A stretch of 64,000 nt of DNA from an uncultured Nitrospirota bacterium (GTDB lineage: Bacteria > CG2-30-53-67), in the NCBI GenBank assembly GCA_945786985.1, contig CALZGC010000039.1, positions 495 through 64,494 of the forward strand. The letters run 5' to 3'. The position numbers and the translations under genes were made by a program. The notes below the pieces were generated by a model. The model ran no database searches, had not been told where the DNA came from, and worked only from the letters and a program-made list of their open reading frames with translations. This document shows positions 5,745-32,715 of the stretch, in pieces (positions within the stretch are counted from its first letter, which is position 1; each line of letters begins with the position of its first letter).

Positions 5745-5750
5745 AACATG

Positions 5751-11053: not shown

Positions 11054-12478
11054 TCAGCGGCTCATGCGCTTTCGCTCAGTGGTAGAAAGGATATTCTGTT
11101 CGATTCGGTACTTGGTGACCGTCCGCCTCGCAATTGCAATCCCCTGGCCGTTGAGGATCTCCACGATCTTCTGGTCACTATAGGGCCTCTGGTGATCTTC
11201 CCCCATGATAATCTTGCGGATCCTTTCCTGCACGCTGATCGATGAAACGCTCCCATCGGCGCAACGAAGACCGCTGCAGAAAAAGTATTTCAGTTCAAAA
11301 ATGCCGTGGGGAGTATGGACATATTTGTTCGTCGTCACCCGACTGATAGTGGACTCATGCATTTCGATGTCTTCCGCCACATCCCGAAGGACCATCGGCT
11401 TCAGGCAGGACGCCCCCTTTTCAAAGAACTCCCGCTGAAACTTCAGAATACTTTCCATGGTCCGGTAGATGGTCTTCTGGCGCTGCTCAATGCTGCGGAT
11501 CAACCAGAGGGCCGACTTGAATTTGCTCTCCACATATTCCACCGTCTGTGAACTCAGCTGCTGCCGTTCCTTCAGCATCCTCCGGTAGAAGGACGACACC
11601 TTCAGCCGAGGCATCCCGTCATCATTGAGCAGAATGACCAAATCCTTGCCATCCCGCACCACGTATATATCGGGGACGATATAAACCGGATCCTCGCCAC
11701 CGAAAGACCGGCCCGGTTTCGGCTCAAGGTTCTCGATTACTTTGGCCGCCATCGCCACGTCATCCACCGTGACGCCGAGCTTCTTGGCTATGGCCGTATG
11801 ATCTTTTTTCTGCAGCAGCGGGAGATAGTCCTGAATGATGGCCACCACCAGATGGTTGTCTGCATCCAGCTGCTCAGCCTGAAGAATCAGGCACTCCTTC
11901 AGATCGCTTGCCGCCACCCCGGGGGGATCGAAATTCTGGACCAGCTTGAGCGCCTCGGCAACCTGATCGCCCGGGCGGCTCGTCATTTCCGACAGTTCAT
12001 TGACAGACACGCGCAAATAGCCATCGTTATCCAGGTTTCCGATGACATGCTCCGCGATCGAGCGGATCTGATCATCGCTCCTGGAAAGACTCAGCTGCCA
12101 AATCAGATGGTCGCTGAGTGTGCCCTTTCGGGACAGGGTATTTTCATAGGACGGCATTTCGCCGTTGTCGGCATAAGGTTCGTAGGCCGAATAGCCCGAA
12201 TCCATGGAATCATTCAGGTAACTGCGCCAGTCAAACTCCTCTTCCTGCTTTTTGGCGGTCTCTTCCGGGCCGTTCTCATCGTCGCCCAGGATCTGTTTCT
12301 CCTCTGCGGAGGCCTCCTGCAATTCCTCCTCCAGGACGGGATTCTCCACCAGTTCCTGGTGAATGCTCTGAATCAGTTCCAGTTTCGACAGCTGGAGCAG
12401 CTTGATCGCCTGCTGCAACTGGGGCGTCATGACGAGCTTCTGGCTCAGTTTCAGATTAAGTCGAGTATCCAGCTGCAT
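11054..12478 (-). CDS. rpoN: RNA polymerase sigma-54 factor
   Basis: N-terminal LKLSQKLVMTPQLQQAIKLLQL activator-interacting region, core-binding domain, and C-terminal RpoN box ARRTVTKYR. Confidence 0.95.
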   Translation of the reverse strand: MQLDTRLNLKLSQKLVMTPQLQQAIKLLQLSKLELIQSIHQELVENPVLEEELQEASAEEKQILGDDENGPEETAKKQEEEFDWRSYLNDSMDSGYSAYEPYADNGEMPSYENTLSRKGTLSDHLIWQLSLSRSDDQIRSIAEHVIGNLDNDGYLRVSVNELSEMTSRPGDQVAEALKLVQNFDPPGVAASDLKECLILQAEQLDADNHLVVAIIQDYLPLLQKKDHTAIAKKLGVTVDDVAMAAKVIENLEPKPGRSFGGEDPVYIVPDIYVVRDGKDLVILLNDDGMPRLKVSSFYRRMLKERQQLSSQTVEYVESKFKSALWLIRSIEQRQKTIYRTMESILKFQREFFEKGASCLKPMVLRDVAEDIEMHESTISRVTTNKYVHTPHGIFELKYFFCSGLRCADGSVSSISVQERIRKIIMGEDHQRPYSDQKIVEILNGQGIAIARRTVTKYRIEQNILSTTERKRMSR

Positions 12479-12528
12479 TGTGGCCCTCACACGTGACGGC
12501 GCAACCTGCCCGATTCAGCAGGTGAAAG

Positions 12529-15423: not shown

Positions 15424-17019
15424 TCAAGAAAAGCGCTTGGCCGTGACGGAAGGGAATTGGGATGCATCGGTGTGCGGCAAAAACATGGCGGCATTTAGCA
15501 GGGGCATGAAATCGCCGTCGACGTTCAGCTCCACGTAGGTCACACGCCGGCTGATCTCTTCGAGTTCCCGTCGTTTTGCATTTGAGAGCAGACAGAGACA
15601 GGCGCCCACGCCGGCACTGTTATGGAGCGCGCGGTAACGAGCCAGGGGAATATCGGGAACCATCCCGATGCTTATGGCCTTTTCAGGGTCGATATAGGCA
15701 CCGAACGTTCCCGCGACGAAAAAATACTCCAGATCGTGGAAGGAAAGCCCCGCCTGGCGCGTCATGACAGTCAGCGCCGTGTACATGGCAGCCTTGGTGC
15801 GAAGCAGATTATCCAGATCGAGCTGGGTCAAGTCGATGGGCGTCCCGGTGCCGCTCTGATCCGCAGGGACCAGCCGATACGCCGTGTGGCCATCCCGTTC
15901 CACAACGCCTTGCGCCCCGATGACAATCTTTCCCCGTTCATCAATCACACCGCTCAGGAAGAGCTCGGCCATCAGATCGATGAGGCCCGATCCGCAGATC
16001 CCTCTGGGGGGGATACGCCCGATGGTGGACCAGGTGGGCCGGAGAGTCTTGCGGTCCATCCGCACCTGATCGATGGCCCCTGGCGCCGCCCGCATCCCGC
16101 AGCCAACGACTCCGCCCTCCAGGGCCGGACCGGCGGCGCCGGCCGCCACCGTCAGCCAGTGCCGATTCCCGAGAACGATCTCGGCATTGGTCCCCACATC
16201 CACGAGCACCGAGAACTTCTCGGCGCGGTGCATCTGCGACACCAGAATGCCGGCCAGCGCGTCCCCGCCGGCGTAACTGCCCACACTGGGAAGGGCATAG
16301 AACACTGCATTTTCATGGACCTCCAAATCGAAATCGCGGGCGGGACAAATCTGCAGGCGATTGACGACGGGACTGTAGGGCTCCCGGCAGAGACGGTGGG
16401 TAGAAAACCCGCAGAAGAGATGCACCATGGTCGTATTCCCGGCCGCGGCCACTGCGTAGACGTGCCGCCGGTCGATACCATTCTTCTGCAGCAGCTTTGC
16501 AAGGGCCCCGTTGATCGCCTGAATCAACACGGTCTGAAGCTCAGCCGCTCCCTCCTCTCTCTCACAATAGTGTATACGGCTCAGGATATCCTCCCCGAAG
16601 CGAACCTGGGGATTCTCGGCGGTCGACTCATCGAGAACGACTCCCCGGTGCAAGTCGAGGAGGTAGAAGACCAGATTGGTCGAACCGAGATCGACGGCCA
16701 GGGCAAAGTTCATCCCGACTTGGTTGCCGGCAGCCGCATCAATCACTTCCGTGCTGCTCTCCTTCACGGCCAGAGTCACTGTCAGCGGGCCGCGGCTTTC
16801 ATAAAGGACCTCCGACAAGTGCCGCACCATGCCCAAGGGCACAGAGGGGTTACGGACATCTGATTGCTTTTCGAGGAGATCCAGCACCCGATCAACGTCG
16901 CCCCGGTTGTCACGAAGACTGGGCAGCGGAACCTCCAGGAAGACCTTGCGCACCAGAGGATCCAACGCATCCCGTGCCAGGAGTTGTCTTGAGTCTTTCG
17001 GGTCAGAGAAGGTCACCAC
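15424..17019 (-). CDS. ASKHA-domain protein (DUF4445, RACo C-terminal-like ATPase without ferredoxin domain)
   Basis: 531 aa with acetate/sugar-kinase fold phosphate motifs (AVDLGSTNLVFYL, VDVGTNAEIVLG, CGSGLIDL) typical of the corrinoid-activase C-terminal domain family. Confidence 0.7.
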   Translation of the reverse strand: MVTFSDPKDSRQLLARDALDPLVRKVFLEVPLPSLRDNRGDVDRVLDLLEKQSDVRNPSVPLGMVRHLSEVLYESRGPLTVTLAVKESSTEVIDAAAGNQVGMNFALAVDLGSTNLVFYLLDLHRGVVLDESTAENPQVRFGEDILSRIHYCEREEGAAELQTVLIQAINGALAKLLQKNGIDRRHVYAVAAAGNTTMVHLFCGFSTHRLCREPYSPVVNRLQICPARDFDLEVHENAVFYALPSVGSYAGGDALAGILVSQMHRAEKFSVLVDVGTNAEIVLGNRHWLTVAAGAAGPALEGGVVGCGMRAAPGAIDQVRMDRKTLRPTWSTIGRIPPRGICGSGLIDLMAELFLSGVIDERGKIVIGAQGVVERDGHTAYRLVPADQSGTGTPIDLTQLDLDNLLRTKAAMYTALTVMTRQAGLSFHDLEYFFVAGTFGAYIDPEKAISIGMVPDIPLARYRALHNSAGVGACLCLLSNAKRRELEEISRRVTYVELNVDGDFMPLLNAAMFLPHTDASQFPSVTAKRFS

Positions 17020-18960
17020 TTATCCTGAGAGGCTCGCATCGTACACCACCGCCCCCATCTCCGATACGTCGTAACCACCGAGTGCCAGAATCATCTCTTT
17101 GAATTCCGGATCGTCCCGCAGAATCCCGAGCAGGCGCTGCATGGCCTCCGTCTCCAGGAAGTCCGACGGAATGGCAAAGTCAAACCGTTCGCGGGCCACG
17201 GGGATAAAGTCCAGAGAGAGCGCCCGGGCCGCCGCCAGAATTCCGACCCCCGCGTCTGCCGTCCCACCGGCCACGGCGGATGCCACCCCCATGTGGGTAT
17301 ACTCCTCCCGTTCGTAACCGCGGATGGCCTCGGGAAGGAACCCCAGTTTTCGCAGGCTTCCCTCGGTCAGCAGTCGGGTGCCGGAGCCCTTCTGGCGGTT
17401 GATAAAGACCAGATCGTCCCGGGCGAGATCCTGGAGTCCCTTGATCCCCTTCGGATTCCCCCGGGGAACCAGCAAGCCCTGCTCCCGGTACACGAGATTG
17501 ACCAACACCATCGGTCGGTCCGGCAGGAGACGCCGCAGAAAGGGTGCGTTGTATTCACCGCTCTCCTCGTCGAGCAGATGGGTACCCGCCAAATGCGCTT
17601 CCCCCCGCTTGATGGCCAGCAGGCCACCCAGACTCCCCACATGGGAGGAGGAGAAGGAGAGCCTCGGATGGCGTTTCTTCAGAACATTCGCCAGGATGTC
17701 CAGGGTGTTGTCGTGACTGCCGATGCAAACCACCGTCTCGGCCAGTTCCGATGTAGACCGGAGCAGCTCGACCCGGACCTCCTCCCCGGCGGCGATCCCC
17801 TCGCTGAGCGCCGGAATGCGGACGATACCGCCCGCCCGCACCAAGGACATGAGCTTCCCGGCCCCCCGGGAGACCGGTGTGGCCACGGTCCGGGGTCCCA
17901 CAACCCCGACCGTGACGCGCACAAACTCTTCCTGTCCGACCGCGGAGCTGATCTGTCGCGACAGAACAGCGGGCACCGTCTGAGGCTCGGGCACGGGACG
18001 CCCTTGACAGGCGAAGAGCAGGGGCTTCACAAAGAGCGACAAGGTCAACACGGCCGAAATGGGATAGCCTGGAATGCCGACTACCGGTTTGTGGTCCACC
18101 ACTCCGAGAATGACCGGTTTTCCGGGCTTGATGCTCACACCCTGTACGAAGACCTCCCCCAGTTCCCGCATAGCGTGAATCGTAAAGTCCTCGCGCCCCG
18201 CCGAAGAGCCGGCGTTGACCACAACCATGTCGGCGCTCTCGAGGGCGGCCTGAATGCCGGCCCGGACGGCTTCCAGCGTATCCGGAACAACATCGTGGCG
18301 CACAGCCCGTCCGCCCCACTCCTGGATGAGTCCGCAGAGAATTCTCGAGTTGAATTCGATGATCTGCCCCTGCTTCGGCGTACATCCGGGCTGGACCAAC
18401 TCGCTGCCGGTGGGAAGCACCCCCACAACGGGAAGCCGGCGTACCTGAAGCTCCGTCAAACCACCGGCCAGGATGGCCCCCAAGTCCACCGGACGAATCT
18501 CATGATTCTCCGGAAGGATCAGCTCCGTGGCCACCAGATCCTCCCCCATGGTCCGTACATGCTTGTAGGGGGTCACCGGAGCGATGATCTCGATTTCGTC
18601 CCGGCCGCAGCAGTCCACCTCCTCGATCATGATGACCGCGTCCATCCCATCGGGGAGGGGATCGCCCGTGTCCACGTAGACGGCCTCCCTGCCGATCCGC
18701 AGACGCTTCGGCCGCGTTTCCGAGGCCCCGACGGTATCCACAAACCGCACGGCCACGCCATCCATCGCAGCCGCGTGATAGCTCGGTGAGGAAAGCCGCG
18801 CCGTCACGGCCTGCGCGGTGATGCGACGCAGGGCGTCGTCCACAGGAATCACTTCGCCCGGTAGCGGCTGCCAAACCCCGTGCCGGGTCAGCACCTCTGT
18901 CCATTTCGCGAGGGCTTCGGACAGGGGCGTGCTTTTCGGGTAAACCTCACGTTTCACCAC
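17020..18960 (-). CDS. moeA: molybdopterin molybdotransferase MoeA fused to a C-terminal periplasmic-binding-protein-like domain
   Basis: N-terminal MoeA domains (AMDGVAV...GDPLPDGMDAVIMIEE...GSSAGREDF...IPGYPISA), then a ~240-aa extension (CIGSHDNTLDILA...GGLLAIKRGEAHLAGTHL) resembling a type-2 PBP/molybdate-binding fold. Confidence 0.85.
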   Translation of the reverse strand: MVKREVYPKSTPLSEALAKWTEVLTRHGVWQPLPGEVIPVDDALRRITAQAVTARLSSPSYHAAAMDGVAVRFVDTVGASETRPKRLRIGREAVYVDTGDPLPDGMDAVIMIEEVDCCGRDEIEIIAPVTPYKHVRTMGEDLVATELILPENHEIRPVDLGAILAGGLTELQVRRLPVVGVLPTGSELVQPGCTPKQGQIIEFNSRILCGLIQEWGGRAVRHDVVPDTLEAVRAGIQAALESADMVVVNAGSSAGREDFTIHAMRELGEVFVQGVSIKPGKPVILGVVDHKPVVGIPGYPISAVLTLSLFVKPLLFACQGRPVPEPQTVPAVLSRQISSAVGQEEFVRVTVGVVGPRTVATPVSRGAGKLMSLVRAGGIVRIPALSEGIAAGEEVRVELLRSTSELAETVVCIGSHDNTLDILANVLKKRHPRLSFSSSHVGSLGGLLAIKRGEAHLAGTHLLDEESGEYNAPFLRRLLPDRPMVLVNLVYREQGLLVPRGNPKGIKGLQDLARDDLVFINRQKGSGTRLLTEGSLRKLGFLPEAIRGYEREEYTHMGVASAVAGGTADAGVGILAAARALSLDFIPVARERFDFAIPSDFLETEAMQRLLGILRDDPEFKEMILALGGYDVSEMGAVVYDASLSG

Positions 18961-18974
18961 GCCTGCCTCCTGCG

Positions 18975-20267
18975 TCAGTCAAAAAGAGCCACCTCCACCT
19001 CCTCTCCCCTCTCCAGGCCGATCCTCTCCTCCGGGATGATCACGGTCCCATGGGCATCGACGAGGGTACGAATCAGGCCCGATTTGCCGAGAATGGGCCG
19101 CGCCCGAATCTGCTCCTCCTCGATCTCGATGGCCACCCGGATATAGTCCTCTCGCCCGGCCACGGAAGAGACGGACCGTGACATTCTGGCCCGAATGACC
19201 GGCCGTCGGAGCGAAGACCAGGGCACCTCCCGAAGGCCCGACAGCAAGCGGAGGACGGGCCTCACAAAGAGGTCAAACCCGATCACAATGGCCGCCGGAT
19301 GTCCGGGCAGGCCGAAAACAGGGGTCTTGCGGACCACGGCACAGATGGTCGGTTTGCCCGGCTTCACCGCCACCCCGTGAACAACGATCCCCGGCCCTCC
19401 CAGCCGTGAAACCACTTCGGCCGTCAGATCTCGTGTGCCGGCGGAGCTTCCGCCGGACAGCACGACCACCTCACACTCCGCCAACGCCCGCAACACGCTC
19501 TCCGTCAGGGCCGCCAGATCATCGGGCACGATGGCATACCGGTCCGGAACCCCGCCCGCCTGTTCGATCAAAGCCGACAGATGATAGCTGTTGATGTCCC
19601 GCACCTGTCCGGGACCGGCCACCTGATGGGGGGGGACGATTTCACTGCCCGTCGGAATGACGGCAACCCGGGGGCGCCTGTAGACGGGCACCCGGGTCAC
19701 ACCCAGGCCGCAGAGCACGCCGATGTCCTGGGGTCGCAGGCGGTGCCCCGCCTGCAGAACGACCTCCCCCTCTTGCACATCGTCGCCGGCCTGAATCACG
19801 TTTTCTCCCGGCGCCACCGATCGGGTGACCTCGATCATCCGATCGTCCACCGGAGCGGTCTGCTCGAACATGACCACGGCATCAGCGCCTTCCGGCAGCA
19901 TCCCCCCCGTGGCGATCTTCATCGCATCCTGGACCCGAACCACGCCGGATGCAGGCACGCCCATCGGAACTTCTCCTGCCATGTTGAGATAGGCAGGCAG
20001 AGCCTCCGTCGCGCCAAAGGTATCCTGCGCCCTTACCGCGTAACCGTCCATGGTGGACCTTGAAAAGACCGGCAGGTCTTCGCTCGACACAATCGGCTGA
20101 CTGATGACCCGGCCCAATGCGCAGACCACGTCGACCCTCTCCTCCCTAAGCTCGAGCACGCCGAGGTGGGAAAAAAAAGTCTCCCGCGCACGCCGACGGG
20201 GCGCCAGTTCGCACCGTCCCAGCATATCTTTCGGCCCCTGGGGCTTCTTTCTGGAAGGATCATCCAT
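18975..20267 (-). CDS. moeA: molybdopterin molybdotransferase MoeA (second paralogue)
   Basis: SRSTMDGYAVRA, GGMLPEGADAVVMFE, LSGGSSAGTRDLT, GLPGHPAAI, and a C-terminal beta-barrel domain. Start uncertain (MDDPS at 20267 or MLGRC at 20225). Confidence 0.88.
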   Translation of the reverse strand: MDDPSRKKPQGPKDMLGRCELAPRRRARETFFSHLGVLELREERVDVVCALGRVISQPIVSSEDLPVFSRSTMDGYAVRAQDTFGATEALPAYLNMAGEVPMGVPASGVVRVQDAMKIATGGMLPEGADAVVMFEQTAPVDDRMIEVTRSVAPGENVIQAGDDVQEGEVVLQAGHRLRPQDIGVLCGLGVTRVPVYRRPRVAVIPTGSEIVPPHQVAGPGQVRDINSYHLSALIEQAGGVPDRYAIVPDDLAALTESVLRALAECEVVVLSGGSSAGTRDLTAEVVSRLGGPGIVVHGVAVKPGKPTICAVVRKTPVFGLPGHPAAIVIGFDLFVRPVLRLLSGLREVPWSSLRRPVIRARMSRSVSSVAGREDYIRVAIEIEEEQIRARPILGKSGLIRTLVDAHGTVIIPEERIGLERGEEVEVALFD

Positions 20268-20448
20268 TGCGCCGCTCTCTCGCTTAAACGTCCGGCGCGC
20301 CCGTTCCCCTGAACCCCGGGCCCGGGCGAAGCCTTTGAAACCTAACAAAAAAATCGGGCAGAAAAATTTATATCACAGCCGGCGGAAGAATGGCAATGGA
20401 ATCTTCATCCTAAAGCCCGAATGACCACCTCTGCCCCCAAAATCAGAC

Positions 20449-20514: not shown

Positions 20515-21039
20515 CTAGTGGGCTTTCTTCAGCGGGACGTGCTCGTGGATTCCCTGCTTCAGGCGCTCCTCGAAATTGAACTCCTTATAGAAGGGGCTCT
20601 TCTCGTTGTGGCATTTGCGGCAGGCGGCCTCATCGGGGAGGATCAGTCCCTTCGCAATCACTTCCTCCCGTTTGTAATCCCGGTTGGTCATCATGACCTT
20701 CATGTAGTCCGACCCGGCACCGTGACAAGCTTCACACTGCACGTTCGGCATGTCCGCGCTGCCGTTGACCGTGTGGCAGGGCAGACAGGTCGCATCCCCC
20801 GTGTAGTCTTTGTTCGGATCGAGCCCGGCAGCCGTCTTGGCCTCGGCCCGGACCCCCGGCTTGAGGTGTTCAAAGACCTTGGCCATTTTGGTGGTCTTCC
20901 AGCTCTTAAACTGTTTCATGTGGCACATCTTGCACTTCTTTACGCCTACATAATCGGCTGCCTGCACTGGGCTCACCCCCAACAGGACAAAAAACAAGAC
21001 TCCCATGAAAATCATTCCGTGTTTGAACATACCCCGCAC
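20515..21039 (-). CDS. tetrahaem c-type cytochrome (periplasmic)
   Basis: Signal peptide MIFMGVLFFVLLGVSPVQA; four CxxCH motifs (CKMCH, CLPCH, CEACH, CRKCH). Confidence 0.85.
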   Translation of the reverse strand: MRGMFKHGMIFMGVLFFVLLGVSPVQAADYVGVKKCKMCHMKQFKSWKTTKMAKVFEHLKPGVRAEAKTAAGLDPNKDYTGDATCLPCHTVNGSADMPNVQCEACHGAGSDYMKVMMTNRDYKREEVIAKGLILPDEAACRKCHNEKSPFYKEFNFEERLKQGIHEHVPLKKAH

Positions 21040-21386
21040 CTCCTGTTGTAATTGTGAAAACGGTTAATAAAGACGCAGCATCACCTTATAACTCTTCCGA
21101 CGACGGGCTGTCAAATATATTCAGATTTTTTTCTCGGATAGGTCTGCTGGCTGAGAACCCGTCCACCTTACCCACCACCTTTTTTCCTCCCTCTTTTCAA
21201 AGGGTTAAGCAGTTCTTACAATCCATGCGCCAACACGTCAAGATACGCTTGATTCGAAAGGCTTGTATTTCCTCCATGCCTCGGCTATGATCGCTTCGGC
21301 GCAGCCCCGGCTGTGCGGCACCGTTGCGCCTACAAATAGTGCCGGTTCCGATCAAATCCGCCGGAAACATGCTGCCGGAGACCCTG

Positions 21387-22235
21387 ATGAAACAGCGCCC
21401 GTTAGTCAGCGTGATCATTCCCACCTTCAACCGCTTTGCCATGCTCTGCGAGGCCATCGACTCCGTTCTGGCCCAGACCTTTTCCAACTTCGAACTCATC
21501 GTCGTCGACGACGGCTCCTATGACGAAACCGGCTCGACCCCGGACCGATACGGACCGTCCGTCAAGTATATTTTCCAAAAAAATCAAGGGGTTAGCGCGT
21601 CAAGAAACCGGGGGATTCGCCACGCCAAGGGGGATTTCATCTGTTTTCTGGACTCCGATGACCTCTGGTTGCCCCGGAAGCTCGCGGTTCAATATGCCAA
21701 AATGATCGAGAACCCTGCGGAGTCGATCTCTTACACGGAGGAGATCTGGTACCGTCGGGGGGTCCGGGTGAATCCGAAGAGAAAGCATGCCAAACACGGG
21801 GGGCGGATTTTCACACAGTGTCTGCCGCTCTGCATCATCAGCCCCTCCTCCGTCATGATCCGAAGAAGCCTCTTTCGAGTCGTGGGGCTCTTTGACGAAG
21901 GGCTCCCTGCGTGCGAGGATTACGACCTCTGGCTGCGAATTGCGAAGAATTTCCCGATACGGCTAATCCAGGAACCCCTGATTATCAAACGAAACGGCCA
22001 CCCCGGACAACTCTCGGCCAGTGACTGGGGCTTCGATCGCTACCGCGTGCAAAGCATTGTACAGCTTCTGGCCTCCGGCACGCTGAGCCCGGATCAGGCG
22101 GAAACCGCAGTCGTCGTACTGACACAGAAGTGCCGCATCCTCTGCAAGGGATTTCTGAAACGCGGGAAGACCGAAGAGGCAACGGCTTACGCAAAATTGC
22201 TGCAACAGTGTGCAGGTGCAATATTCCCTTCATAA
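21387..22235 (+). CDS. family-2 glycosyltransferase
   Basis: VSVIIPTFNR...IVVDDGS...CFLDSDD (GT-A fold with DxD). Start set at MKQRPL. Confidence 0.85.
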   Translation: MKQRPLVSVIIPTFNRFAMLCEAIDSVLAQTFSNFELIVVDDGSYDETGSTPDRYGPSVKYIFQKNQGVSASRNRGIRHAKGDFICFLDSDDLWLPRKLAVQYAKMIENPAESISYTEEIWYRRGVRVNPKRKHAKHGGRIFTQCLPLCIISPSSVMIRRSLFRVVGLFDEGLPACEDYDLWLRIAKNFPIRLIQEPLIIKRNGHPGQLSASDWGFDRYRVQSIVQLLASGTLSPDQAETAVVVLTQKCRILCKGFLKRGKTEEATAYAKLLQQCAGAIFPS

Positions 22236-22436: not shown

Positions 22437-23948
22437 ATGGGTTTGCTTCAACATGCGAATTTGAGTCTTAAATTCCGATTTGTCTGTTTTGTCGTCCTGT
22501 TGCTGACACTCACCATCGGTGTTTTCTCCTACTATCTTCTGAAGATTCAGCGCAACCAGCTCATGGATGTCACCCGGGAGAAGCTGCGCGACGTTGCCGA
22601 CACCATCGAGAAGTCCATCCAGACGTCCATGGAGGTCGGCCGCAGTCAGGACGTCAAGCGGATCATCGAAACGGTGGGTTCCCTGCCCGATCTGAAGCAG
22701 GTGCGGATCTTCTCAAAACGGGGCGTCATTCTGATCTCCAACGATCCGGAAGAGGTGGGTGCGACGATCGACAAAGAAGAGATGGAGTTGTTCCGCCAGC
22801 AGAAGTTCTCCACGGTCTACGATATCAAACTGCTCGAGCAGCCGGTGTTCAGGATTGTCCGACCTATCATGAACGAGCCCCGCTGCTATCGTTGCCACGG
22901 TGCCAACCCCAACCAGATTAACGGTGTTCTCGAAGTGGACGTCTCCATGCAGAAGGTTCACGAACGGATGGCATCGGTGAGACGATTCATGACCACCTCA
23001 ACCCTGGTCACACTCGCCGTGCTGATGGTCTCCCTTCTGTTCCTGGTCTCTCACCTGGTCAACCGGCCCATCCAGAGCCTGATCACGACCATGCGAAAAG
23101 CAGAGCGGGGGGACATCACCGCTCGGGTGATTCCCGACGACACCCTTGAATTTGGAGAGCTGGGGCGCAATTTCAATTCCATGATCACCAAACTTCAGAA
23201 GGCACAACACGACCTGGAAGAGATGCACGACCAGCAGATGGAGCGGGTCGATCGCTTCGCTACGATCGGGGAGCTGGCGGCGGGCATCGCCCATGAAATC
23301 AAGAATCCCATCGCCGGTATCGGTGGCGCCATCCAGATCCTCATGGAGGACTTTCCGCGCAACGATCACCGACGGGAGATCTTTGAGGAAATTCTGAAGC
23401 AGATCGACCGAATCGATCAGGACATCAAAGACCTGTTGAGCTACGCGCGAACGGCCAAGCCGACCCTCGAAGAACACGATATCAACAAAGTGATTCAGCA
23501 GGCCCTGTTCCTCATCCGTGACCGGGCGGCGCAACAGCGGGTGGAGGTACTCACCGAATTGAGTGAGAAGCTCCCCTCCATCGAGATCGATGAAAAACAG
23601 ATCCAGCAGGTGCTCGTGAACCTCGGCTTGAACGCCATTCAAGCGATGCCGAACGGCGGCGTGCTGAAAATAACCTCCGCCGTTGACGATAGCTCACAGG
23701 ATCCAGAATTCGCGGCGATTCGCGTGGAAGACACGGGGCGTGGGATTTCTCCGAAAAACATTTCGAAGATCTTTACACCCTTCTTTACCACCCGTCACAC
23801 CGGTACCGGCCTGGGGCTGCCCATCAGCCAGAAAATTATTAACCATCACCACGGCACCATCGAAGTCAAGAGCCAGCCCGGCGACGGCACCTGCTTCACG
23901 CTGAGACTGCCGCTGACACGGGCCGGTTTCATGGCACGAGGAGAATAG
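22437..23948 (+). CDS. sensor histidine kinase (two TM helices, periplasmic domain with one CxxCH motif, HAMP, HisKA, HATPase)
   Basis: TM1 FVCFVVLLLTLTIGVFSYYLL; periplasmic segment ending PRCYRCHGANP; TM2; HAMP; H-box IAHEIKNPIAGI; ATPase G-boxes (VEDTGRGI, GTGLGLPIS). Confidence 0.9.
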   Translation: MGLLQHANLSLKFRFVCFVVLLLTLTIGVFSYYLLKIQRNQLMDVTREKLRDVADTIEKSIQTSMEVGRSQDVKRIIETVGSLPDLKQVRIFSKRGVILISNDPEEVGATIDKEEMELFRQQKFSTVYDIKLLEQPVFRIVRPIMNEPRCYRCHGANPNQINGVLEVDVSMQKVHERMASVRRFMTTSTLVTLAVLMVSLLFLVSHLVNRPIQSLITTMRKAERGDITARVIPDDTLEFGELGRNFNSMITKLQKAQHDLEEMHDQQMERVDRFATIGELAAGIAHEIKNPIAGIGGAIQILMEDFPRNDHRREIFEEILKQIDRIDQDIKDLLSYARTAKPTLEEHDINKVIQQALFLIRDRAAQQRVEVLTELSEKLPSIEIDEKQIQQVLVNLGLNAIQAMPNGGVLKITSAVDDSSQDPEFAAIRVEDTGRGISPKNISKIFTPFFTTRHTGTGLGLPISQKIINHHHGTIEVKSQPGDGTCFTLRLPLTRAGFMARGE

Positions 23949-23951: not shown

Positions 23952-24305
23952 ATGCATTCCGAGAGAAGAAGCTCTCCTCGGGTTCCCGTCTCGGTCACCG
24001 TCACCTACCGGGTGGACGGCCACGAGAGAGAGGGAACCTACCGGGTGGAATCGGTGAATGTAAGCGAGGGCGGTGTTTTCGTTGCCACCGACGTGCCCCT
24101 GGGACTCGGGACGGAGGTACATCTGGAGTTTCACCTTCCGAATCAGAGTGAGTCCATTCAGGCTTCCGGAAGGATCGTCTGGTACGGCCGGGCGGAAACA
24201 GCCGGAGGGGGGATGGTCCTGGGGAAAGGCATTCAGTTCACAGATTGTACGGAGCGGTGCCGTCAGCACCTGGCAACCTATGTGGCTCAATACCAAAGGT
24301 CGTAG
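23952..24305 (+). CDS. PilZ-domain protein (c-di-GMP receptor candidate)
   Basis: RxxxR (RRSSPR) and N/DxSxxG (NVSEGG) PilZ motifs. Starts 4 nt after the kinase stop. Confidence 0.8.
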   Translation: MHSERRSSPRVPVSVTVTYRVDGHEREGTYRVESVNVSEGGVFVATDVPLGLGTEVHLEFHLPNQSESIQASGRIVWYGRAETAGGGMVLGKGIQFTDCTERCRQHLATYVAQYQRS

Positions 24306-25986
24306 AAGAAGACCGTTTTGCCCCGCAAGACGCGCGCGCGCGCCGGGTGGAGCGCTGTTACTCCTGACCGCCTTGGCAATCCTGCATGTCGGCTGCGGCA
24401 ATCCGCCGGTGAGTCTCCCGAATGGCAAGGAGGCCATCACCATCGGCGGTTCTGCCTCGCCCGCGCCCATCGTCAAGGCGCTGGTACGGGCGTACGGGCA
24501 GAAGCACCCCGGCGACAAGATTCAGTTTCTGCCAGATGTCCATTCGACCGGGGGCATTCTGGGGGTGGCGGACGGCACGCTCGATATGGGTTTTGTGTCA
24601 CGGGCGCTCACCCCGGAAGAGGACAGATATGCGCTGCTCCGGTACCCCTTTGCCCTGGACATTGTGGTGTTCGCGACCCATCCGGGTGTGCAGGTGGCCG
24701 AACTCTCCACACGTGAAGTGCTGGACATCTATTCGGGAAAAATCTCTAACTGGAAAGAACTGGGCGGTCCCGATCTGGCCGTTGTGGTATTGGACCGGCC
24801 GGAACATTCCTCGGCGAAGCAGGCGCTGCGCCAGTCGCTGTTCGGCGAAGACTTTTCCTGCCGGCCGGACGCCCTGGTACTGGAGCGCGTCAATCAGATG
24901 GACGACGCCCTCCAGACCATAACCGGCAGTATTGGCTACACGTCCTACAGCAATCTCTTTGCACGCAAATTTGATATCCCCCTCCTACGGCTGGACGGCA
25001 CTCTGCCGACCGTTTGGAATCTCGAGCGGCGCATCAGTAAAACCTATCGACAGTACGCCTTCGTGATCAAGGGGCGCCCGGAGCACCTGGTCAAGCGCTT
25101 TCTCAAGTTCGTGTACAGCCAGACCGCACAGGAGATCATCCGAACCAACGGGTTGGTCCCCGAGCGGCGCAAAGTCACCATCGCCTTTGCTCCGGAAATC
25201 AACCTTATGGAGCAGGAAACCCGTTACATCCCGCTGTTCAACTATCTCCACCGGAAAAGCGGAATCTTCATCGATATGAAATACTCGGCCAGCTATTCCC
25301 ACCTCATCCAGGATCTTGTGGCAAAGAGGTTTGACGGGGCCCTGCTCGGAAGCTTCGCCTACGGCCTGATCAATGAACAGGCTCCCCTGGAAGTACTCGG
25401 GCGGCCCGTCATCAACGGCCAGAGCTTTTACACGGGCATTCTGTTCGTACGGAAAGATAGTGGGATCAGGAACCTGGAGGATCTGCGGGGGAAGACATTC
25501 AGTTTCGTCGACCGGGCCACCACGGCGGGCTATCTTTTCCCCCTGCTCTACTTCAAACAGCACGGCATCACCGCGCCGGAGGACTTTTTCGAGAAAACCC
25601 TTTTCTCGGGAAGTCACGATGCATCCATCATGGCGGTTCTGAACGGACAAGCCGACGCGGCAGCGGCTAAGGATCTCGTTGTCATGCGGGTGGGCGAAAA
25701 GGACGTCCGGGTGGCCCTCGAACTTCTCATGCTGGCTACGTCTCTGCCGGTACCGACCAACGGGCTCTGTGTCAACCAGAGCCTCGACTGGGATTTACAA
25801 GAAGATTTGCAGAAGGTGCTACTGGGAATGGAGGAGGATCCGGAGGGACGGCAAGTGTTGAAACGCTTCGGTGCCGAACGTTTCCTGCCCACGACGCACC
25901 GGGATTACCAGAACCTATATGTCATGCTGAAAGAACTCGGCATCGACCCTGCAACTTATTTAAGTAGGCATAAAGGCACCCCTTGA
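24280..25986 (+). CDS. fused periplasmic binding protein: PstS-like phosphate-binding domain plus PhnD/SsuA-like domain
   Basis: Lipoprotein signal LLLLTALAILHVGC. N-half IGGSASPAPIVKAL...GSIGYTSYS (PBP-like-2); C-half TTAGYLFPLLYF...LNGQADAAA (PhnD-like). The only in-frame start overlaps the PilZ 3' end. Confidence 0.75.
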   Translation: MWLNTKGRRRRPFCPARRARAPGGALLLLTALAILHVGCGNPPVSLPNGKEAITIGGSASPAPIVKALVRAYGQKHPGDKIQFLPDVHSTGGILGVADGTLDMGFVSRALTPEEDRYALLRYPFALDIVVFATHPGVQVAELSTREVLDIYSGKISNWKELGGPDLAVVVLDRPEHSSAKQALRQSLFGEDFSCRPDALVLERVNQMDDALQTITGSIGYTSYSNLFARKFDIPLLRLDGTLPTVWNLERRISKTYRQYAFVIKGRPEHLVKRFLKFVYSQTAQEIIRTNGLVPERRKVTIAFAPEINLMEQETRYIPLFNYLHRKSGIFIDMKYSASYSHLIQDLVAKRFDGALLGSFAYGLINEQAPLEVLGRPVINGQSFYTGILFVRKDSGIRNLEDLRGKTFSFVDRATTAGYLFPLLYFKQHGITAPEDFFEKTLFSGSHDASIMAVLNGQADAAAAKDLVVMRVGEKDVRVALELLMLATSLPVPTNGLCVNQSLDWDLQEDLQKVLLGMEEDPEGRQVLKRFGAERFLPTTHRDYQNLYVMLKELGIDPATYLSRHKGTP

Positions 25987-26004: not shown

Positions 26005-27780
26005 ATGGGTCATCTTGACACACAGAAACCGGCCAGTCCCACGATGAGATTGCTCGAGCCCTGGCGCAAAGCCAGTCTTCGAACAAAGGTGTTGATTCCC
26101 TTCCTGGTCATCTTCGTTATTTCGATGCTTCTGGGCACCTATTACTTTCTTAACGTCGTGCTCCGGATGATCGAGTCCCGCATCGAGGAACAACTCCGAG
26201 GCAGTGCGACCCACATTACCCAGGAGCTTCTTCAACAGGAACAACGTATTCTGCACCATGCCCAGAACATGGTGGAAATCAAACTATTGGCCGATCAGAC
26301 ACCGGATACCAATCAGGCAAGATTGCTTCAGATACACGAACTGCAGGCCCTGCGCACCGGGAGCATCCGATTCCTAGGCGTTTACGGAAAGGATCTCTCG
26401 GCCGGGGATCCCCTGTATCCCCTTGTACAAAAAGGTCTGCGGGGGCTTCGTGTCACTGCCCTCATTCAAAGGGATGACCCGGCTGGCACCTCGTGGCATC
26501 TGGTGGGGGTGGCCCCGGTTCCCGCGCCAGCATGGACCGTCGAAGTAGTCCTGCTGGAAACGGTGCTGGATCGAAGCTTTCTCGAGGAGTTGGGAAAACG
26601 TTTCGGTGCAGACGTTGCCCTTTACGATCGTCAGGGCGACCCCATGGCGGAAACGGGATACCAGACGGACAATACGAAAGGTCCTGCTCTGCACGCGCGG
26701 GTACAAGCTGCAGCCGCGCTGCCGGCGGACACCCATCTGCTTGTGCCACAGATGCTGAACGTAGGCGGCACGCCCTACAAGGCAATGTTAGCACCCTTCA
26801 CCGTCAATTACGAACCGGCCGGCACCATCGCCGTCATGATACCGGTGCAGGGATTTCTCTCGACGCGAACACTGGTCGTCGGGCAGGCGGTGGCGTACGC
26901 ACTGATTATCATCATCGGCATGAGTCTGCTCTATCTCCTGATCGTGAGAGGGATCACGGTCCCGTTGAAAGCGCTGGAGAAGGGCGCTCAGCGGATGATG
27001 GCGGGCGCGCCGGTCGAGGGTATCGAGACCCCGTCTGGCGATGAAGTGGGGACCCTCACGCACACCTTCAACGAGATGTCCCGGTCCCTGCAGCACCGGG
27101 AAAAGCAACTGCGGGTGAAAGCCCGGGAGTTCGAGAACAAAACAGAGGAACTCAATGCCATACTGGAACACATGGCCGACAGCGTCGTGGTCCTGAACCG
27201 GGATTACCGGATCGAATACATGAACCGGGCCGCCGTGGACGCCTTCGACGAGAGGGTCGGTGAGAAATGCTACAAAGTCTTTTATGGCAAGGACGAACCC
27301 TGCCACCCCTGTTCCATTGATGAGATCTTGCGCAAGAAGCAGCCTGTCTTTCAGTACAGTTCCGCCGATCCCAGAGGTAAATATTATGAAGTCATCGCCC
27401 AGCCGCTGCACCAGGTAAACGGCGAAGACAAGGTCATTACGATCCGACGGGACATTACGCAGCAGCGGCTGCGCATTGCAGAGCAGAGAAAAATGGAGAA
27501 GAAGATTCAGCAAGAGCGCCTGGCCGCCATCCAGCAGGTGGTCGTGAGCATTAAACATACCGTCAACAATTCATTAACCGCCATCTTCGGGTCGCTGGAG
27601 CTTCTCAAACAAAAGGACTGTAAACTCTCCGAAAAGGACCGGGAAATCGTTGGCATTATCGAATCGGAGTCGGATAAAATCAAGAGCGTTGTCTCCAAGC
27701 TGTCGAATATCACGGACCCGGTGGTGACCCAGTACACGGAGGATGTGACCATGATCGACTTGGATGACCCGTCGGTCTGA
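26005..27780 (+). CDS. membrane sensor protein HAMP–PAS–HisKA, lacking an ATP-binding (HATPase) domain
   Basis: TM helix; large extracytoplasmic domain; TM2 (AYALIIIIGMSLLYLLIV); HAMP; PAS (contains CHPC); DHp-like helix (VVVSIKHTVNNSLTAI). The ORF ends ~60 aa later with no N/G1/F/G2 boxes. Confidence 0.75.
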   Translation: MGHLDTQKPASPTMRLLEPWRKASLRTKVLIPFLVIFVISMLLGTYYFLNVVLRMIESRIEEQLRGSATHITQELLQQEQRILHHAQNMVEIKLLADQTPDTNQARLLQIHELQALRTGSIRFLGVYGKDLSAGDPLYPLVQKGLRGLRVTALIQRDDPAGTSWHLVGVAPVPAPAWTVEVVLLETVLDRSFLEELGKRFGADVALYDRQGDPMAETGYQTDNTKGPALHARVQAAAALPADTHLLVPQMLNVGGTPYKAMLAPFTVNYEPAGTIAVMIPVQGFLSTRTLVVGQAVAYALIIIIGMSLLYLLIVRGITVPLKALEKGAQRMMAGAPVEGIETPSGDEVGTLTHTFNEMSRSLQHREKQLRVKAREFENKTEELNAILEHMADSVVVLNRDYRIEYMNRAAVDAFDERVGEKCYKVFYGKDEPCHPCSIDEILRKKQPVFQYSSADPRGKYYEVIAQPLHQVNGEDKVITIRRDITQQRLRIAEQRKMEKKIQQERLAAIQQVVVSIKHTVNNSLTAIFGSLELLKQKDCKLSEKDREIVGIIESESDKIKSVVSKLSNITDPVVTQYTEDVTMIDLDDPSV

Positions 27781-27867: not shown

Positions 27868-29238
27868 ATGGCAAAAGCAAGAATTCTTGTGGTGGACGAC
27901 GAAAAACTGATCCGCTGGTCTCTGAAGGAGAATCTGGAGAAGGAGAAATACGAAGTCTACACGGCCAGCACCGGCGAAGAAGCGCTGGAGCTGATCCATG
28001 AGGAATTGCCCGATCTGATTCTCCAGGACATCAAACTCCCCGGAGTCAGCGGCCTTGAGATTCTCGAAGAAGTGAAGAAACTGCGAGAGGAGTCCTTGGT
28101 CATCATGATGACGGCCTACGGGGACATCAACACCTCCGTCAAGGCCATGAAGCTCGGCGCCTACGACTTCGTCGAAAAACCTTTCGTTTTCGACAAATTA
28201 AAGCTCACCATCGCCAAGGCTCTCGAAACGGTCAATCTCAAGAAGGAGGTGCATGTTTTCAAGAGTCAGCAGAAGGCCCAGTTCCGCCTGGACAATGTGG
28301 TGGGCCAGTCAGACTCAATGAACCGCGTTTTCAAAATGGTGGAGAAACTCTCCCGTAGTGACGCCACGACGGTGCTCCTGCAGGGAGAGAGCGGAACGGG
28401 GAAGGATGTCATTGCAAAGGCCATTCATTATCAGAGCCGCCGGGCGGAGGCACCGTACATGGAGATCAACTGCACGTCCCTGCCCGACACGCTCATCGAA
28501 AGTGAGCTTTTCGGGCATGAAAAGGGCGCCTTCACGGACGCGAGAGCCATGAAGAAGGGGCTCTTCGAAATCACCGACGGGGGTACCATTCTCCTGGACG
28601 AAATCGGGGATATGCCCTTGAGCACGCAGTCCAAACTGCTTCGAGTCATCGAAAACAAAGCCTTTAAACGCCTCGGAGGCGTCAAGGATATCGTCGTCGA
28701 TGTAAGAATCATCGCCGCGACGAACAAGGACCTGAAGCAGGCGTCCGCAGGGGGCAGCTTTCGGGAGGATCTCTACTATCGACTGAAAGTATTCCCCATC
28801 TATCTACCTACCCTGCGGGACCGGTCGGAAGACATCCCCCTGCTGGTCCGGCACTTCGTCACTACCTTCAATCATGAATTCAAGAAGAACGTGCGCGGCA
28901 TTTCGCCGGAGGCCCAGGATATGATGATGGCCTACCACTGGCCGGGAAACGTCCGGGAGCTGAAGAATGTCATTGAACGGGCAATAATCCTCGAAAGCGA
29001 AGACGTTATTCTGCCCGAACATCTCCCCCTGGAAGTGGTCCGACCCGAGCCGGTCACGAATCCCCACGGCTCATCCATTCAGCTTCCCGCCGAAGGGGTT
29101 TCGCTGTCGGAAGTGGAGAGAGAGCTGATTGAGCAGGCCTTGGCCACATCGAAAGGCAACCAGGTCCATGCAGCCAAATTGCTTCGCATGAGTCGGGACA
29201 CCCTTCGCTATCGTATGAAGAAACACGATCTGCTCTGA
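27868..29238 (+). CDS. sigma-54-dependent response regulator (NtrC family: REC, AAA+, HTH)
   Basis: REC (VVDDEKLIRW...D at LILQD), Walker A GESGTGKD, GAFTDA sigma-54 contact motif, C-terminal Fis-type HTH. Confidence 0.93.
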   Translation: MAKARILVVDDEKLIRWSLKENLEKEKYEVYTASTGEEALELIHEELPDLILQDIKLPGVSGLEILEEVKKLREESLVIMMTAYGDINTSVKAMKLGAYDFVEKPFVFDKLKLTIAKALETVNLKKEVHVFKSQQKAQFRLDNVVGQSDSMNRVFKMVEKLSRSDATTVLLQGESGTGKDVIAKAIHYQSRRAEAPYMEINCTSLPDTLIESELFGHEKGAFTDARAMKKGLFEITDGGTILLDEIGDMPLSTQSKLLRVIENKAFKRLGGVKDIVVDVRIIAATNKDLKQASAGGSFREDLYYRLKVFPIYLPTLRDRSEDIPLLVRHFVTTFNHEFKKNVRGISPEAQDMMMAYHWPGNVRELKNVIERAIILESEDVILPEHLPLEVVRPEPVTNPHGSSIQLPAEGVSLSEVERELIEQALATSKGNQVHAAKLLRMSRDTLRYRMKKHDLL

Positions 29239-29545: not shown

Positions 29546-29561
29546 TGGTACGGGAATTGCA
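29546..29561 (+). promoter_or_regulatory. sigma-54 (−24/−12) promoter for the regulator–cytochrome operon
   Basis: TGGTACGGGAATTGCA matches the TGGCAC-N5-TTGCW spacing exactly, ~58 nt upstream of ATG 29619. An A/T inverted repeat (TTTTTTCCTTGAAAAAA, ~29462) and direct repeats (GCAAATCCGG...CCAAATCCGG, ~29250–29283) lie further upstream. Confidence 0.6.
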
Positions 29562-29618: not shown

Positions 29619-29996
29619 GTGCATAAAAACATCCTGGTCGTTGATGATGAGAAGCTTGTCCGGTGGACCATCCAGCAATCCATGGGGAAACAGAATGTCC
29701 GAGTGGTCTCCGCTGCAACCGGGGCGGAAGCCATGGAGAAGCTCCGGGAAGAACGTTTTGACATCATCATCACCGACTACGTCATGCCCGGGTTCAATGG
29801 CATTGAAGTGGCTCGCCGGGCCCGCCTGCTTCAGCCGGAGAGCAAGATTATCATGATTACAGCCCACGAAATGATTCTGGACCGGGATGAGGCGGACCGG
29901 GCGGGCGTGAGCAGTATCATCAACAAGCCGTTCATGATCAGTGAGGTCAGAAACATCATCTCGGATCTCCTGTCGGAACAGAGAGACTCTGCATAA
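29619..29996 (+). CDS. single-domain response regulator (CheY-like)
   Basis: VVDDEKLVRW...IIITDYVMPG...phospho-Asp pocket. Its stop overlaps the start of the next gene (TAATG). Confidence 0.88.
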   Translation: MHKNILVVDDEKLVRWTIQQSMGKQNVRVVSAATGAEAMEKLREERFDIIITDYVMPGFNGIEVARRARLLQPESKIIMITAHEMILDRDEADRAGVSSIINKPFMISEVRNIISDLLSEQRDSA

Positions 29997-31348
29997 TGAT
30001 TCCTACGCGTATACTTTGTATCACAGCACTCTTGCTATGTCTTTACACACAACTGACCCTGGCGCCGGTGGAAGGGGCCGACGCGCTACCTCATGCCGGC
30101 CTGGCCGACGCCGCACCGGAGGTCTGCTTCAAATGCCACAAGGATCTTGCCACGCCCCCCGAAGGAGGCGTCGTGCATGCAGCCTTCGGAATGGGAGACT
30201 GTTCCATCTGCCATCTGCTGGGAGCGGACAACCGGTTCCAACTCATAGACACCGGCGCCGGCCTCTGTTACATGTGTCACGATGCGAAAAACACCCAGGC
30301 CAAGGTCCACAGCCCCGTAGCCTCAGGGGACTGCATCTTGTGTCACAATCCGCACCAGTCCCCCAACCCGAAGATGCTCATGGACTATCCGGTGAACAAG
30401 CTTTGCTTCAACTGCCACGATGAAGCGATGGCAAAGCATGCCTACGTCCATGTTCCCGTCTCAGAAGGGGAATGCACGAGCTGCCACGACCCCCATCAAT
30501 CGCCGCACGACAAACAGCTTCGGGAAGAGGGAAACAACCTATGCCTCATGTGTCATGCGGACAAAGAAGAGGATCTGAAGACCAAGAAACACGTGCATGA
30601 GGCCGTCGAAATGGTGGGGTGCACGGGCTGCCACAGTCCGCATGCCTCGGACACCAAATACCAGCTGCTCAGCGCACCCCCTGACCTCTGCTACACCTGC
30701 CACTCCGACAAAGAGGGGCCGGTGAAAACGCCGCACGGCGCCATCGAGATGAAAGGGAGCTGCGTCAACTGTCATGACCCCCATGCCTCCGACCATGAAG
30801 CACAATTAAAGGCTGCGGAAAACAAAGACCTCTGTCTCAAGTGTCACGATCGCAGGCGGAAGACAAAAAGCGGCTATATCCTCAACATGAAGGCCCATCT
30901 GGAAAAGAACCCGGAGCACCACGGGCCCATATTAATGGGAGACTGCGCGTCCTGCCACAACCCGCACGGCTCCGACGAATGGCGGATGCTGAAAAAACCT
31001 TTTCCGGCGGAGTTTTACGTCCCCTTTAAGCTGGAACGCTATGGCCTCTGTTTCGAATGCCATGACGAATCACTGGTTCTGGACGAGAACACGACGGCCA
31101 ACGGGTTCAGAAATGGCGAGATGAACCTGCATTTTGTCCACGTGAGCGATCCCCGTAAGGGTAGACGGTGCGTCGTCTGCCACGACGCCCATGCAGCCCA
31201 AGGACCGAAACATGTTCGGGAGACCGCCAAATTCGGGTCATGGGACCTTCCCATACGCCTCGAACTCCTGGAAGACGGCGGACGCTGTGCCCCCGGATGT
31301 CATCTCCCCCGGGCATACAACCGTAGCAAACCGGTAAAAAACAGGTGA
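29996..31348 (+). CDS. multihaem c-type cytochrome (14 CxxCH plus a C-terminal CxxxCH)
   Basis: Signal peptide. Motifs CFKCH, CSICH, CYMCH, CILCH, CFNCH, CTSCH, CLMCH, CTGCH, CYTCH, CVNCH, CLKCH, CASCH, CFECH, CVVCH, CAPGCH. Recurrent CxxCHxPHxS spacing typical of doubled-CXXCH/c7-type polymers. Confidence 0.9.
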   Translation: MIPTRILCITALLLCLYTQLTLAPVEGADALPHAGLADAAPEVCFKCHKDLATPPEGGVVHAAFGMGDCSICHLLGADNRFQLIDTGAGLCYMCHDAKNTQAKVHSPVASGDCILCHNPHQSPNPKMLMDYPVNKLCFNCHDEAMAKHAYVHVPVSEGECTSCHDPHQSPHDKQLREEGNNLCLMCHADKEEDLKTKKHVHEAVEMVGCTGCHSPHASDTKYQLLSAPPDLCYTCHSDKEGPVKTPHGAIEMKGSCVNCHDPHASDHEAQLKAAENKDLCLKCHDRRRKTKSGYILNMKAHLEKNPEHHGPILMGDCASCHNPHGSDEWRMLKKPFPAEFYVPFKLERYGLCFECHDESLVLDENTTANGFRNGEMNLHFVHVSDPRKGRRCVVCHDAHAAQGPKHVRETAKFGSWDLPIRLELLEDGGRCAPGCHLPRAYNRSKPVKNR

Positions 31349-31519: not shown

Positions 31520-31535
31520 TGGCACAGCTCTTGCT
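31520..31535 (+). promoter_or_regulatory. sigma-54 (−24/−12) promoter for the 4-haem cytochrome gene
   Basis: TGGCACAGCTCTTGCT, a perfect TGGCAC-N5-TTGC. Followed by a ~175-nt leader before ATG 31710. Confidence 0.65.
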
Positions 31536-32378: not shown

Positions 32379-32409
32379 GCCTTGGCATGATCCTCAACCG
32401 AATGCAGCA

Positions 32410-32442
32410 AAGCCCCTATGAGATTTCATAGGGGCTTTTTTG
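32410..32442 (+). terminator. Rho-independent terminator
   Basis: GCCCCTATGAGATTTCATAGGGGC hairpin followed by TTTTTT. Confidence 0.7.
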
Positions 32443-32610
32443 GGGCTCTCACCGAGGAAATCTTTGGCAAGCGTCCACTGCAAAGGGGGGTTTTTCGACG
32501 GCATCGGATGGACTGGGCACAGAATCGAGGCACCGCAGTCAGGGCAAAGGAATCTTTCGGCCCTCGAGTGTGGGGTGCGATAGCGTGTCAATTTTGCCTT
32601 AAATACTTTA

Positions 32611-32639
32611 TTGACACGTTTGAACCTGCATGATAAACT
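32611..32639 (+). promoter_or_regulatory. candidate sigma-70-type promoter for the NHL-lipoprotein operon
   Basis: TTGACA-N17-TAAACT, ~80 nt upstream of ATG 32716. Confidence 0.3.
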
Positions 32640-32715
32640 TGAATATATTCAAAAGGTTAGCTTGTCAGGAAAGTGCCCAGATCTTTCAGCATCATTCCAA
32701 TTGGAGACAGAGAAG

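Follow-up and report, generated by a model that had tools for sequence, protein, structure and literature searches.

What does a histidine kinase with a haem-binding motif in its extracytoplasmic domain perceive, and which genes does it control? The question is raised by a stretch of DNA of 64,000 nucleotides from an uncultured Nitrospirota bacterium of the lineage CG2-30-53-67 (assembly GCA_945786985.1, contig CALZGC010000039.1, positions 495 to 64,494 of the forward strand), here called the window, in which a sensor histidine kinase of 503 amino acids is encoded close to a series of multihaem cytochrome genes. The kinase carries a single CxxCH motif in a predicted periplasmic domain that, by profile matches and alignment, is a member of a known family of haem c sensors. 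We consider it probable that this domain is a redox-linked His/Met haem switch which drives a sigma-54-dependent regulator and, through it, operons for cytochromes. The DNA of the window has a match in contig CAMYNS010000010.1 (assembly GCA_947259695.1), where the identical protein (100%) is called, and the closest relatives of the kinase (64-88% identity) come from metagenome-assembled genomes (MAGs) of uncultured Nitrospirota.

The sensor domain and its CxxCH motif

The gene and its parts are as follows (TM1 and TM2 are the two transmembrane segments):

22437..23948, forward strand: sensor histidine kinase, 503 amino acids, an open reading frame comprising TM1, a predicted haem c sCache sensor, TM2, HAMP, HisKA and HATPase_c
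22473..22541, forward strand: TM1, about residues 13-35 (hydropathy windows above 1.6), within a continuous helix 11-66 of the AlphaFold2 model
22542..22991, forward strand: predicted periplasmic sensor domain, about residues 36-185, of the sCache_heme or Mcp40H-20_sensor type
22629..22631, forward strand: codon of Met65, candidate distal (sixth) haem ligand, aligned with Met60 of GSU0935
22884..22898, forward strand: C150-Y-R-C153-H154, identified by sequence, invariance and alignment with CQSCH of the structures 3B42 and 3B47
22992..23060, forward strand: TM2, about residues 186-208, running into HAMP (hydropathy; continuous modelled helix 172-223)
23292..23294, forward strand: codon of His286, the predicted phospho-acceptor in the H-box AHEIKNP, invariant in 103 homologues

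Judged by its sequence, the protein is a complete class I (HisKA/HATPase_c) sensor kinase with its catalytic boxes intact. Pfam places HAMP at residues 203-254, HisKA at 278-338 and HATPase_c at 385-494, and the residues of the H, N, G1 and G2 boxes (H286, N395, N399, D432, G434, G436 and G456-G460) do not vary in an alignment of 103 homologues. The best partial matches in NCBIfam are AtoS and ZraS.

The letters TGCTATCGTTGCCAC at 22884-22898 encode Cys-Tyr-Arg-Cys-His, residues 150-154, in the context NEPRCYRCHGANPNQ. A Kyte-Doolittle scan with a 19-residue window gives only two hydrophobic segments, and the basic residues that flank them (K12 and R14 ahead of TM1; R210, R217, K218 and R221 past TM2) place residues 36-185, a loop of about 150 amino acids that includes the motif, in the periplasm by the positive-inside rule. 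The long helices 11-66 and 172-223 in both AlphaFold models agree with such an extracytoplasmic sensor domain. The initial annotation had proposed a haem-binding CxxCH at this site between TM1 and TM2, and translation and hydropathy confirm both the motif and its position. With 4 cysteines and 13 histidines in 503 residues, shuffling yields a CxxCH in only 106 of 200,000 trials (about 5e-4, or 0.05%).

The conservation of the motif is close to absolute. More than 3000 homologues were found with the full-length protein as query; in each of the best 120, which range from 39 to 100% identity, CxxCH occurs once and aligns with that of the kinase, and its two middle positions are free to vary (R, P, N, G, T, E, H, L, A, D, I, V, F, K, S, Q or Y). 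With the N-terminal 215 residues as query, an exhaustive search by HMMER gave 1514 representatives after clustering at 50% identity (E up to 1e-3). Among the 150 of these that were listed, 148 were newly retrieved, and the motif is present in 141 of the 148; of the seven without it, six are short, truncated or frameshifted fragments, and one, P0136, has CSSHH, which may be a real variant or an error. In an alignment of 235 sensor domains that span the whole region, C153 and H154 are present in all 235 and C150 in 234, and this holds down to about 21% identity. Orthologues keep the motif, then, a point on which the initial annotation had let its proposal of a haem site depend. A word-indexed search with the same N-terminal 215 residues gave no match, a result limited by the sensitivity of that method; it does not indicate an absence of homologues, because the full-length query and the exhaustive HMMER search both found the family.

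Assignment to a known family comes from several matches. The initial annotation had suggested a Pfam scan for a DUF3365/Tll0287-like domain, and the isolated sensor domain does match PF11845 (27.3 bits against a cutoff of 24.1); the full-length protein passes the same threshold narrowly (24.5 bits). This match is partial, covering profile positions 71-114 of 144 in the motif region only, and is shared by only 7 of 22 diverse homologues. PF21563 (Mcp40H-20_sensor, the haem sensor of GSU0582 and GSU0935) is also matched by the isolated domain (27.5 bits, cutoff 27) and by 18 of the 22 homologues, with a best E of 2.9e-11, and most of the 120 full-length homologues carry it as a precomputed annotation. 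In the Protein Data Bank, the whole kinase finds kinase-core entries only; searched separately as a single sequence, the sensor finds 3B42, the sensor of GSU0935, over nearly its whole length (E = 3e-5). A profile built from 22 sequences finds 3B42 at E = 3.7e-13 and 3B47, the sensor of GSU0582, at E = 3.9e-11, and reaches Tll0287 (5B82) weakly, at E = 0.01 over 50 residues. CYRCH aligns onto the CQSCH of both 3B42 and 3B47. The initial reading of the domain as a Tll0287-like or Geobacter-type haem sensor is thereby borne out, and by analogy the haem is predicted to be attached by thioether bonds at Cys150 and Cys153, with His154 as its proximal ligand.

The AlphaFold2 model of the full-length protein has a mean predicted local distance difference test score of 85. 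The sensor is modelled with an sCache fold, in which the CxxCH lies on a short helix, 148-154, between strands 137-145 and 161-170. Because the CxxCH helix is inserted between two strands, this fold agrees with the description of the sCache_heme family (DUF3365/Tll0287-like, PF11845), so named in the preprint of Deshpande et al. 2026 (PMC12889525). These authors found the family to be enriched in Nitrospirota and Desulfobacterota, listed histidine kinases among its architectures, reported at least 99% conservation of the CxxCH and showed haem incorporation in both proteins tested (PMC12889525). On these matches the domain is a member of the known haem c sensor family (PF21563/PF11845, sCache_heme). 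To label the gene as a haem c (sCache_heme) sensor kinase is therefore sound as annotation, and the system is of a kind already known. At least nine multihaem cytochrome c genes lie in the window, so the organism must mature haem c in the periplasm.

Some relatives of the kinase have variant sensor-domain architectures (P0148, P0180, P0181, P0234, P0248 and several distant sensors). In some, the sensor domain is repeated in tandem, with two or three copies; in others a second CxxCH, together with a CxxxxCH variant (for example CYNSACH), occurs within the domain. These tandem or multi-motif relatives resemble the two-haem Geobacter proteins GSU0591 and GSU0599.

The closest structural models are GSU0935 and GSU0582, chemoreceptors of G. 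sulfurreducens, in which CxxCH likewise occurs once, at a position that corresponds to that of the kinase and after the common context P-x-x-N-E-x-R-C. They further resemble the kinase in that the sensor lies between TM1 and TM2 and is followed by HAMP, and in the conserved methionine of the distal ligand. With the numbering of 3B42 offset by 34, as fixed by the motif histidine (chain His110 is His144), Met65 of the kinase aligns with Met60 of GSU0935 (chain residue 26). Met65 is kept in 102 of 103 close homologues and in 230 of the 235 wider ones, about as well as the haem-attachment residues; in two of the five exceptions the aligned residue is Cys, reminiscent of the Cys that ligates the haem in Tll0287. 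In the low-spin haem of GSU0935, Met60 is the distal axial ligand, bound in the reduced state, freed on oxidation and displaced by nitric oxide (NO) or carbon monoxide (CO); a redox-linked methionine on/off switch is documented for both GSU0582 and GSU0935 (PMC8396549).

Met65 and His154 thus predict His/Met ligation of the haem and not the Cys/His ligation of Tll0287. The Thermosynechococcus protein is stand-alone and soluble, and its similarity to the kinase is weak and partial. Ligation of its type was considered and excluded, as the periplasmic domain has no free cysteine: the cysteines of the kinase are C17 (in TM1), C150, C153 and C486. The same distinction holds within the sCache_heme family, whose sCache fold, inserted CxxCH helix and fusion to TM-HAMP signalling modules are those of the kinase, whereas Tll0287 and the stand-alone members are Cys/His-ligated (PMC12889525). 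By its description, DcrA of Desulfovibrio vulgaris, a chemoreceptor with a periplasmic c-type haem as redox or oxygen sensor (PMC8396549), is also comparable, although its output is that of a methyl-accepting chemotaxis protein, unlike that of the kinase.

The sigma-54 regulator and the cytochrome genes

A candidate output of the kinase is encoded downstream of it on the same strand. The genes and sites concerned are:

20515..21039, reverse strand: tetrahaem c554-like cytochrome (Pfam Cytochrome_C554, 5.4e-15), divergent to the kinase
23952..24305, forward strand: PilZ-domain protein (Pfam PilZ, 2.4e-18), starting 4 nt past the kinase stop codon
about 24280-25986, forward strand: double solute-binding protein, a fusion of PBP_like_2 and Phosphonate-bd
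26005-27780, forward strand: HAMP-PAS_4-HisKA membrane sensor, 591 amino acids, with a weak dCache_3-like periplasmic region and without HATPase_c
27868..29238, forward strand: NtrC-family sigma-54 response regulator (REC, AAA+ and HTH_8 by Pfam; GAFTDA motif in the translation)
29546..29561, forward strand: -24/-12-like motif TGGTACGGGAATTGCA, 58 nt upstream of the operon of the small regulator and the 12-haem cytochrome
29619-29996, forward strand: single-domain response regulator (Pfam Response_reg)
29996-31348, forward strand: 12-haem cytochrome c (six Paired_CXXCH_1 matches)
31520..31535, forward strand: second sigma-54-like motif TGGCACAGCTCTTGCT, upstream of the cytochrome and NHL genes that follow
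31710-36349 and beyond, forward strand: cytochrome, NHL and cytochrome genes
36392-38434: 680-residue protein with no Pfam match
43553-45688 and 47123-50038, reverse strand: two very large proteins with MopE copper-binding repeats and cytochrome c7

In six related loci (L002, L003, L004, L007, L008 and L010) the regulator directly follows the kinase or the kinase and the PilZ gene. Because of this arrangement, the double solute-binding gene and the HisKA-only sensor that stand between them in the window look as if they had been inserted into a kinase-(PilZ)-regulator unit of older origin. The solute-binding gene is present in L005 and L006 and absent from L002, L007 and L008, and its product looks like an inserted second input module. 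The PilZ gene is probably co-transcribed with the kinase; it holds the same position in five loci (L002, L005, L006, L008 and L009), and this conservation suggests an input of cyclic di-GMP to the two-component system, or an output from it. In L003, from Geopsychrobacter electrodiphilus, the regulator is followed by an NHL/PEGA protein and very large cytochromes, and in L004, from an unclassified MAG, the kinase-regulator module likewise adjoins cytochrome genes. On this recurring gene order, the regulator at 27868-29238 is the likely cognate partner of the kinase.

The pattern TGGYAY-N5-TTGCW, scanned over the 64-kb window, has two matches where 0.19 are expected. Both are on the forward strand, and both stand ahead of cytochrome genes, at 29546-29561 and 31520-31535. 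L002, L007, L008 and the Geopsychrobacter locus have an equivalent motif in the intergenic stretch that follows the regulator gene, and the gene order of the operon of the small regulator and the 12-haem cytochrome is itself conserved in related loci. The sigma factor that the regulator needs is available to the organism, since rpoN lies at 11054-12490. We take 29619-31348 as a candidate target operon, and the kinase probably controls the neighbouring multihaem cytochrome genes.

The genes from 29996 to 50038 form a large cluster typical of extracellular electron transfer. Among its products are the 12-haem cytochrome and several of the Paired_CXXCH type, two NHL beta-propellers, a SurA-like chaperone, and both cytochromes and NHL proteins in which Cds6_C NTF2-like domains are repeated. 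The 680-residue protein could be an outer-membrane barrel.

A parallel for the proposed output exists in G. sulfurreducens, where the sigma-54 regulator BccR (GSU0598) induces the cytochrome operon cbcBA as redox potential falls (bioRxiv 10.1101/2021.04.15.440034). The likeness lies in the NtrC-type regulator, the -24/-12 promoter, the cytochrome operon and the response to redox potential; the target of BccR is a bc-type quinol oxidoreductase, whereas the candidate operons of the window encode NHL proteins and multihaem c-type cytochromes. GSU0599 is listed as a haem c two-component protein among signal transducers with haem motifs (PMC8396549), with two such motifs to the one of the kinase described here. 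The numbers of the locus tags, and these only, suggest that GSU0598 and GSU0599 are adjacent; we found no literature that links BccR to a histidine kinase, and the cbcBA preprint makes no mention of GSU0599.

Redox potential or gas as the possible signal, and readings without haem

How could a haem in this domain govern cytochrome genes? In the mechanism that we favour, the single-Cache (PAS-like) domain would covalently bind one haem c through Cys150 and Cys153, with His154 as proximal ligand; the exchangeable distal ligand would be Met65, where the N-terminal helix ends. By analogy with GSU0582 and GSU0935, the reduced haem would favour a six-coordinate, low-spin His/Met state, and oxidation, or displacement by NO or CO, would release the methionine. 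The N-terminal helix, continuous with TM1, would then move, and TM2 and HAMP would relay the change to the HisKA/HATPase core, so altering the phosphorylation of the sigma-54-dependent regulator at 27868-29238. The regulator in turn would switch on the sigma-54 promoters before the adjacent multihaem cytochrome and NHL operons of the extracellular electron transfer type. The signal that we favour is the redox potential of the periplasm.

Several observations weigh against this reading. The full-length protein falls just short of the PF21563 threshold (25.9 bits). In L005, whose kinase is the closest relative at 88% identity, the -12 element of the corresponding motif (15125-15145) is degenerate, TGGTTCGAGAATCACC against TGGTACGGGAATTGCA, with flanking sequence otherwise well conserved, and L006 and L004 yielded no sigma-54 motif. 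Kinase and regulator are separated in the window by the PilZ, double solute-binding and HisKA-only genes, and the wiring may be more complex than that of a simple kinase-regulator pair. To our knowledge, the characterised members of the family are only two chemoreceptor sensor domains, Tll0287 and the two Pseudomonas proteins of the sCache_heme preprint, and we know of no experiments on histidine kinases of this type. Finally, Deshpande et al. argue that sCache_heme domains linked to signalling are sensors of NO and not of redox potential (PMC12889525).

This last point leads to the most serious alternative, in which domain and haem are the same and a diatomic gas, NO or possibly CO, is the signal: by displacing Met65 or the proximal histidine, it would make the kinase an NO-responsive two-component sensor. 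The spectroscopy in the sCache_heme preprint favours this reading, with mixed five- and six-coordinate NO complexes and no stable O2 complex (PMC12889525), and both GSU0582 and GSU0935 bind NO in either redox state and CO when reduced, with displacement of Met60 (PMC8396549). The PilZ gene in the same operon, coding for a cyclic di-GMP receptor, also fits a common theme in NO signalling. Gene context, however, points to redox and cytochrome control: among the annotated neighbours we saw no gene for NO detoxification or denitrification (nor, hcp, hmp, nir), and those that are conserved encode multihaem cytochromes of the extracellular electron transfer type and NHL proteins. The strongly conserved distal methionine, moreover, speaks for a haem that is six-coordinate when reduced, as the redox-switch model has it. 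We hold gas as the signal to be the less likely of the two readings, which are not mutually exclusive.

A second alternative dispenses with the haem. A CxxC pair can make a redox-active disulfide in the periplasm, and haem attachment in this kinase is a prediction; the CxxCH could then be a thiol/disulfide redox switch, or a zinc or copper site, in an ordinary ligand-binding Cache domain. Homology to 3B42 and 3B47, in which haem c is covalently bound according to the papers cited above, extends beyond the motif to the whole domain, and a disulfide switch would not require His154 (235 of 235) or Met65 (230 of 235). Set against the near-invariance of the CxxCH in sCache_heme proteins and the incorporation of haem in both of those tested (PMC12889525), this explanation is very improbable. 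That the CxxCH is a functionless chance occurrence has the shortness of the motif in its favour and nothing else, and is ruled out by the shuffling frequency and by a conservation (120/120; 234-235/235) that persists, with variable middle residues, into the most distant homologues.

The redox-linked His/Met switch can be carried one step further, more tentatively. The haem kinase, the PilZ protein and the sigma-54 regulator, with the c554-like cytochrome as a possible electron relay, might form a dedicated periplasmic redox-potential switch for a porin-cytochrome-like extracellular electron transfer cluster comprising the 12-haem cytochrome, the NHL propellers, the 680-residue protein and the MopE-repeat cytochromes. 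The gene for the c554-like cytochrome adjoins the kinase in L002 and in L005-L008, and we speculate that its product is a possible redox partner of the sensor haem. We regard this larger scheme as possible, and doubtful as a whole. If it is true, the kinase would supply the first sensor upstream of the potential-dependent switching of cytochromes, which even in Geobacter is a missing step.

The domain family itself is already known from the structures of GSU0582 and GSU0935, Tll0287, PF21563, PF11845 and the sCache_heme preprint, and histidine kinases with haem motifs have been listed in Geobacter genomes (PMC8396549). Of these Geobacter examples, six are named in no more than two papers of the literature that we searched, one of the two being the review that lists them. 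We know of no histidine kinase with a haem c sensor that has been functionally characterised. The link to cytochrome control in uncultured Nitrospirota is modestly interesting and unproven. It bears on how bacteria that respire metals or electrodes sense the potential of their acceptors and choose among cytochrome pathways. The locus offers a clean syntenic candidate, with sensor, sigma-54 regulator, promoter and cytochrome operon together in an uncultured Nitrospirota bacterium, and an equivalent arrangement exists in Geopsychrobacter, a cultivable genus.

Further genes of the window

Two further genes are listed here:

11054..12490, reverse strand: rpoN (sigma-54); the overlapping gene of L001 carries Sigma54_AID/CBD/DBD
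21324-22235, forward strand: family 2 (GT2) glycosyltransferase

The HisKA-only sensor at 26005-27780 stops about 25 residues past HisKA, and it is not a truncation artefact, because L005 keeps the same length. It may be a phosphatase, or may be phosphorylated in trans by the haem kinase. Its PAS region contains C-x(11)-C-H-P-C (CYKVFYGKDEPCHPC), a possible metal or redox site.

The rpoN gene lies in its classical neighbourhood on the reverse strand (2878-14622), with lptC, lptA, lptB, hpf, hprK and rapZ, together with the IIB, IIC and IID components of a mannose-type phosphotransferase system (PTS) and PTS enzyme I. Between it and the c554-like cytochrome, at 15424-20348 on the same strand, a RACo-like reductive activator (ASKHA domain) stands beside two MoeA paralogues, one of them fused to PBP_like; in L002, too, this block lies ahead of the cytochrome and kinase genes.

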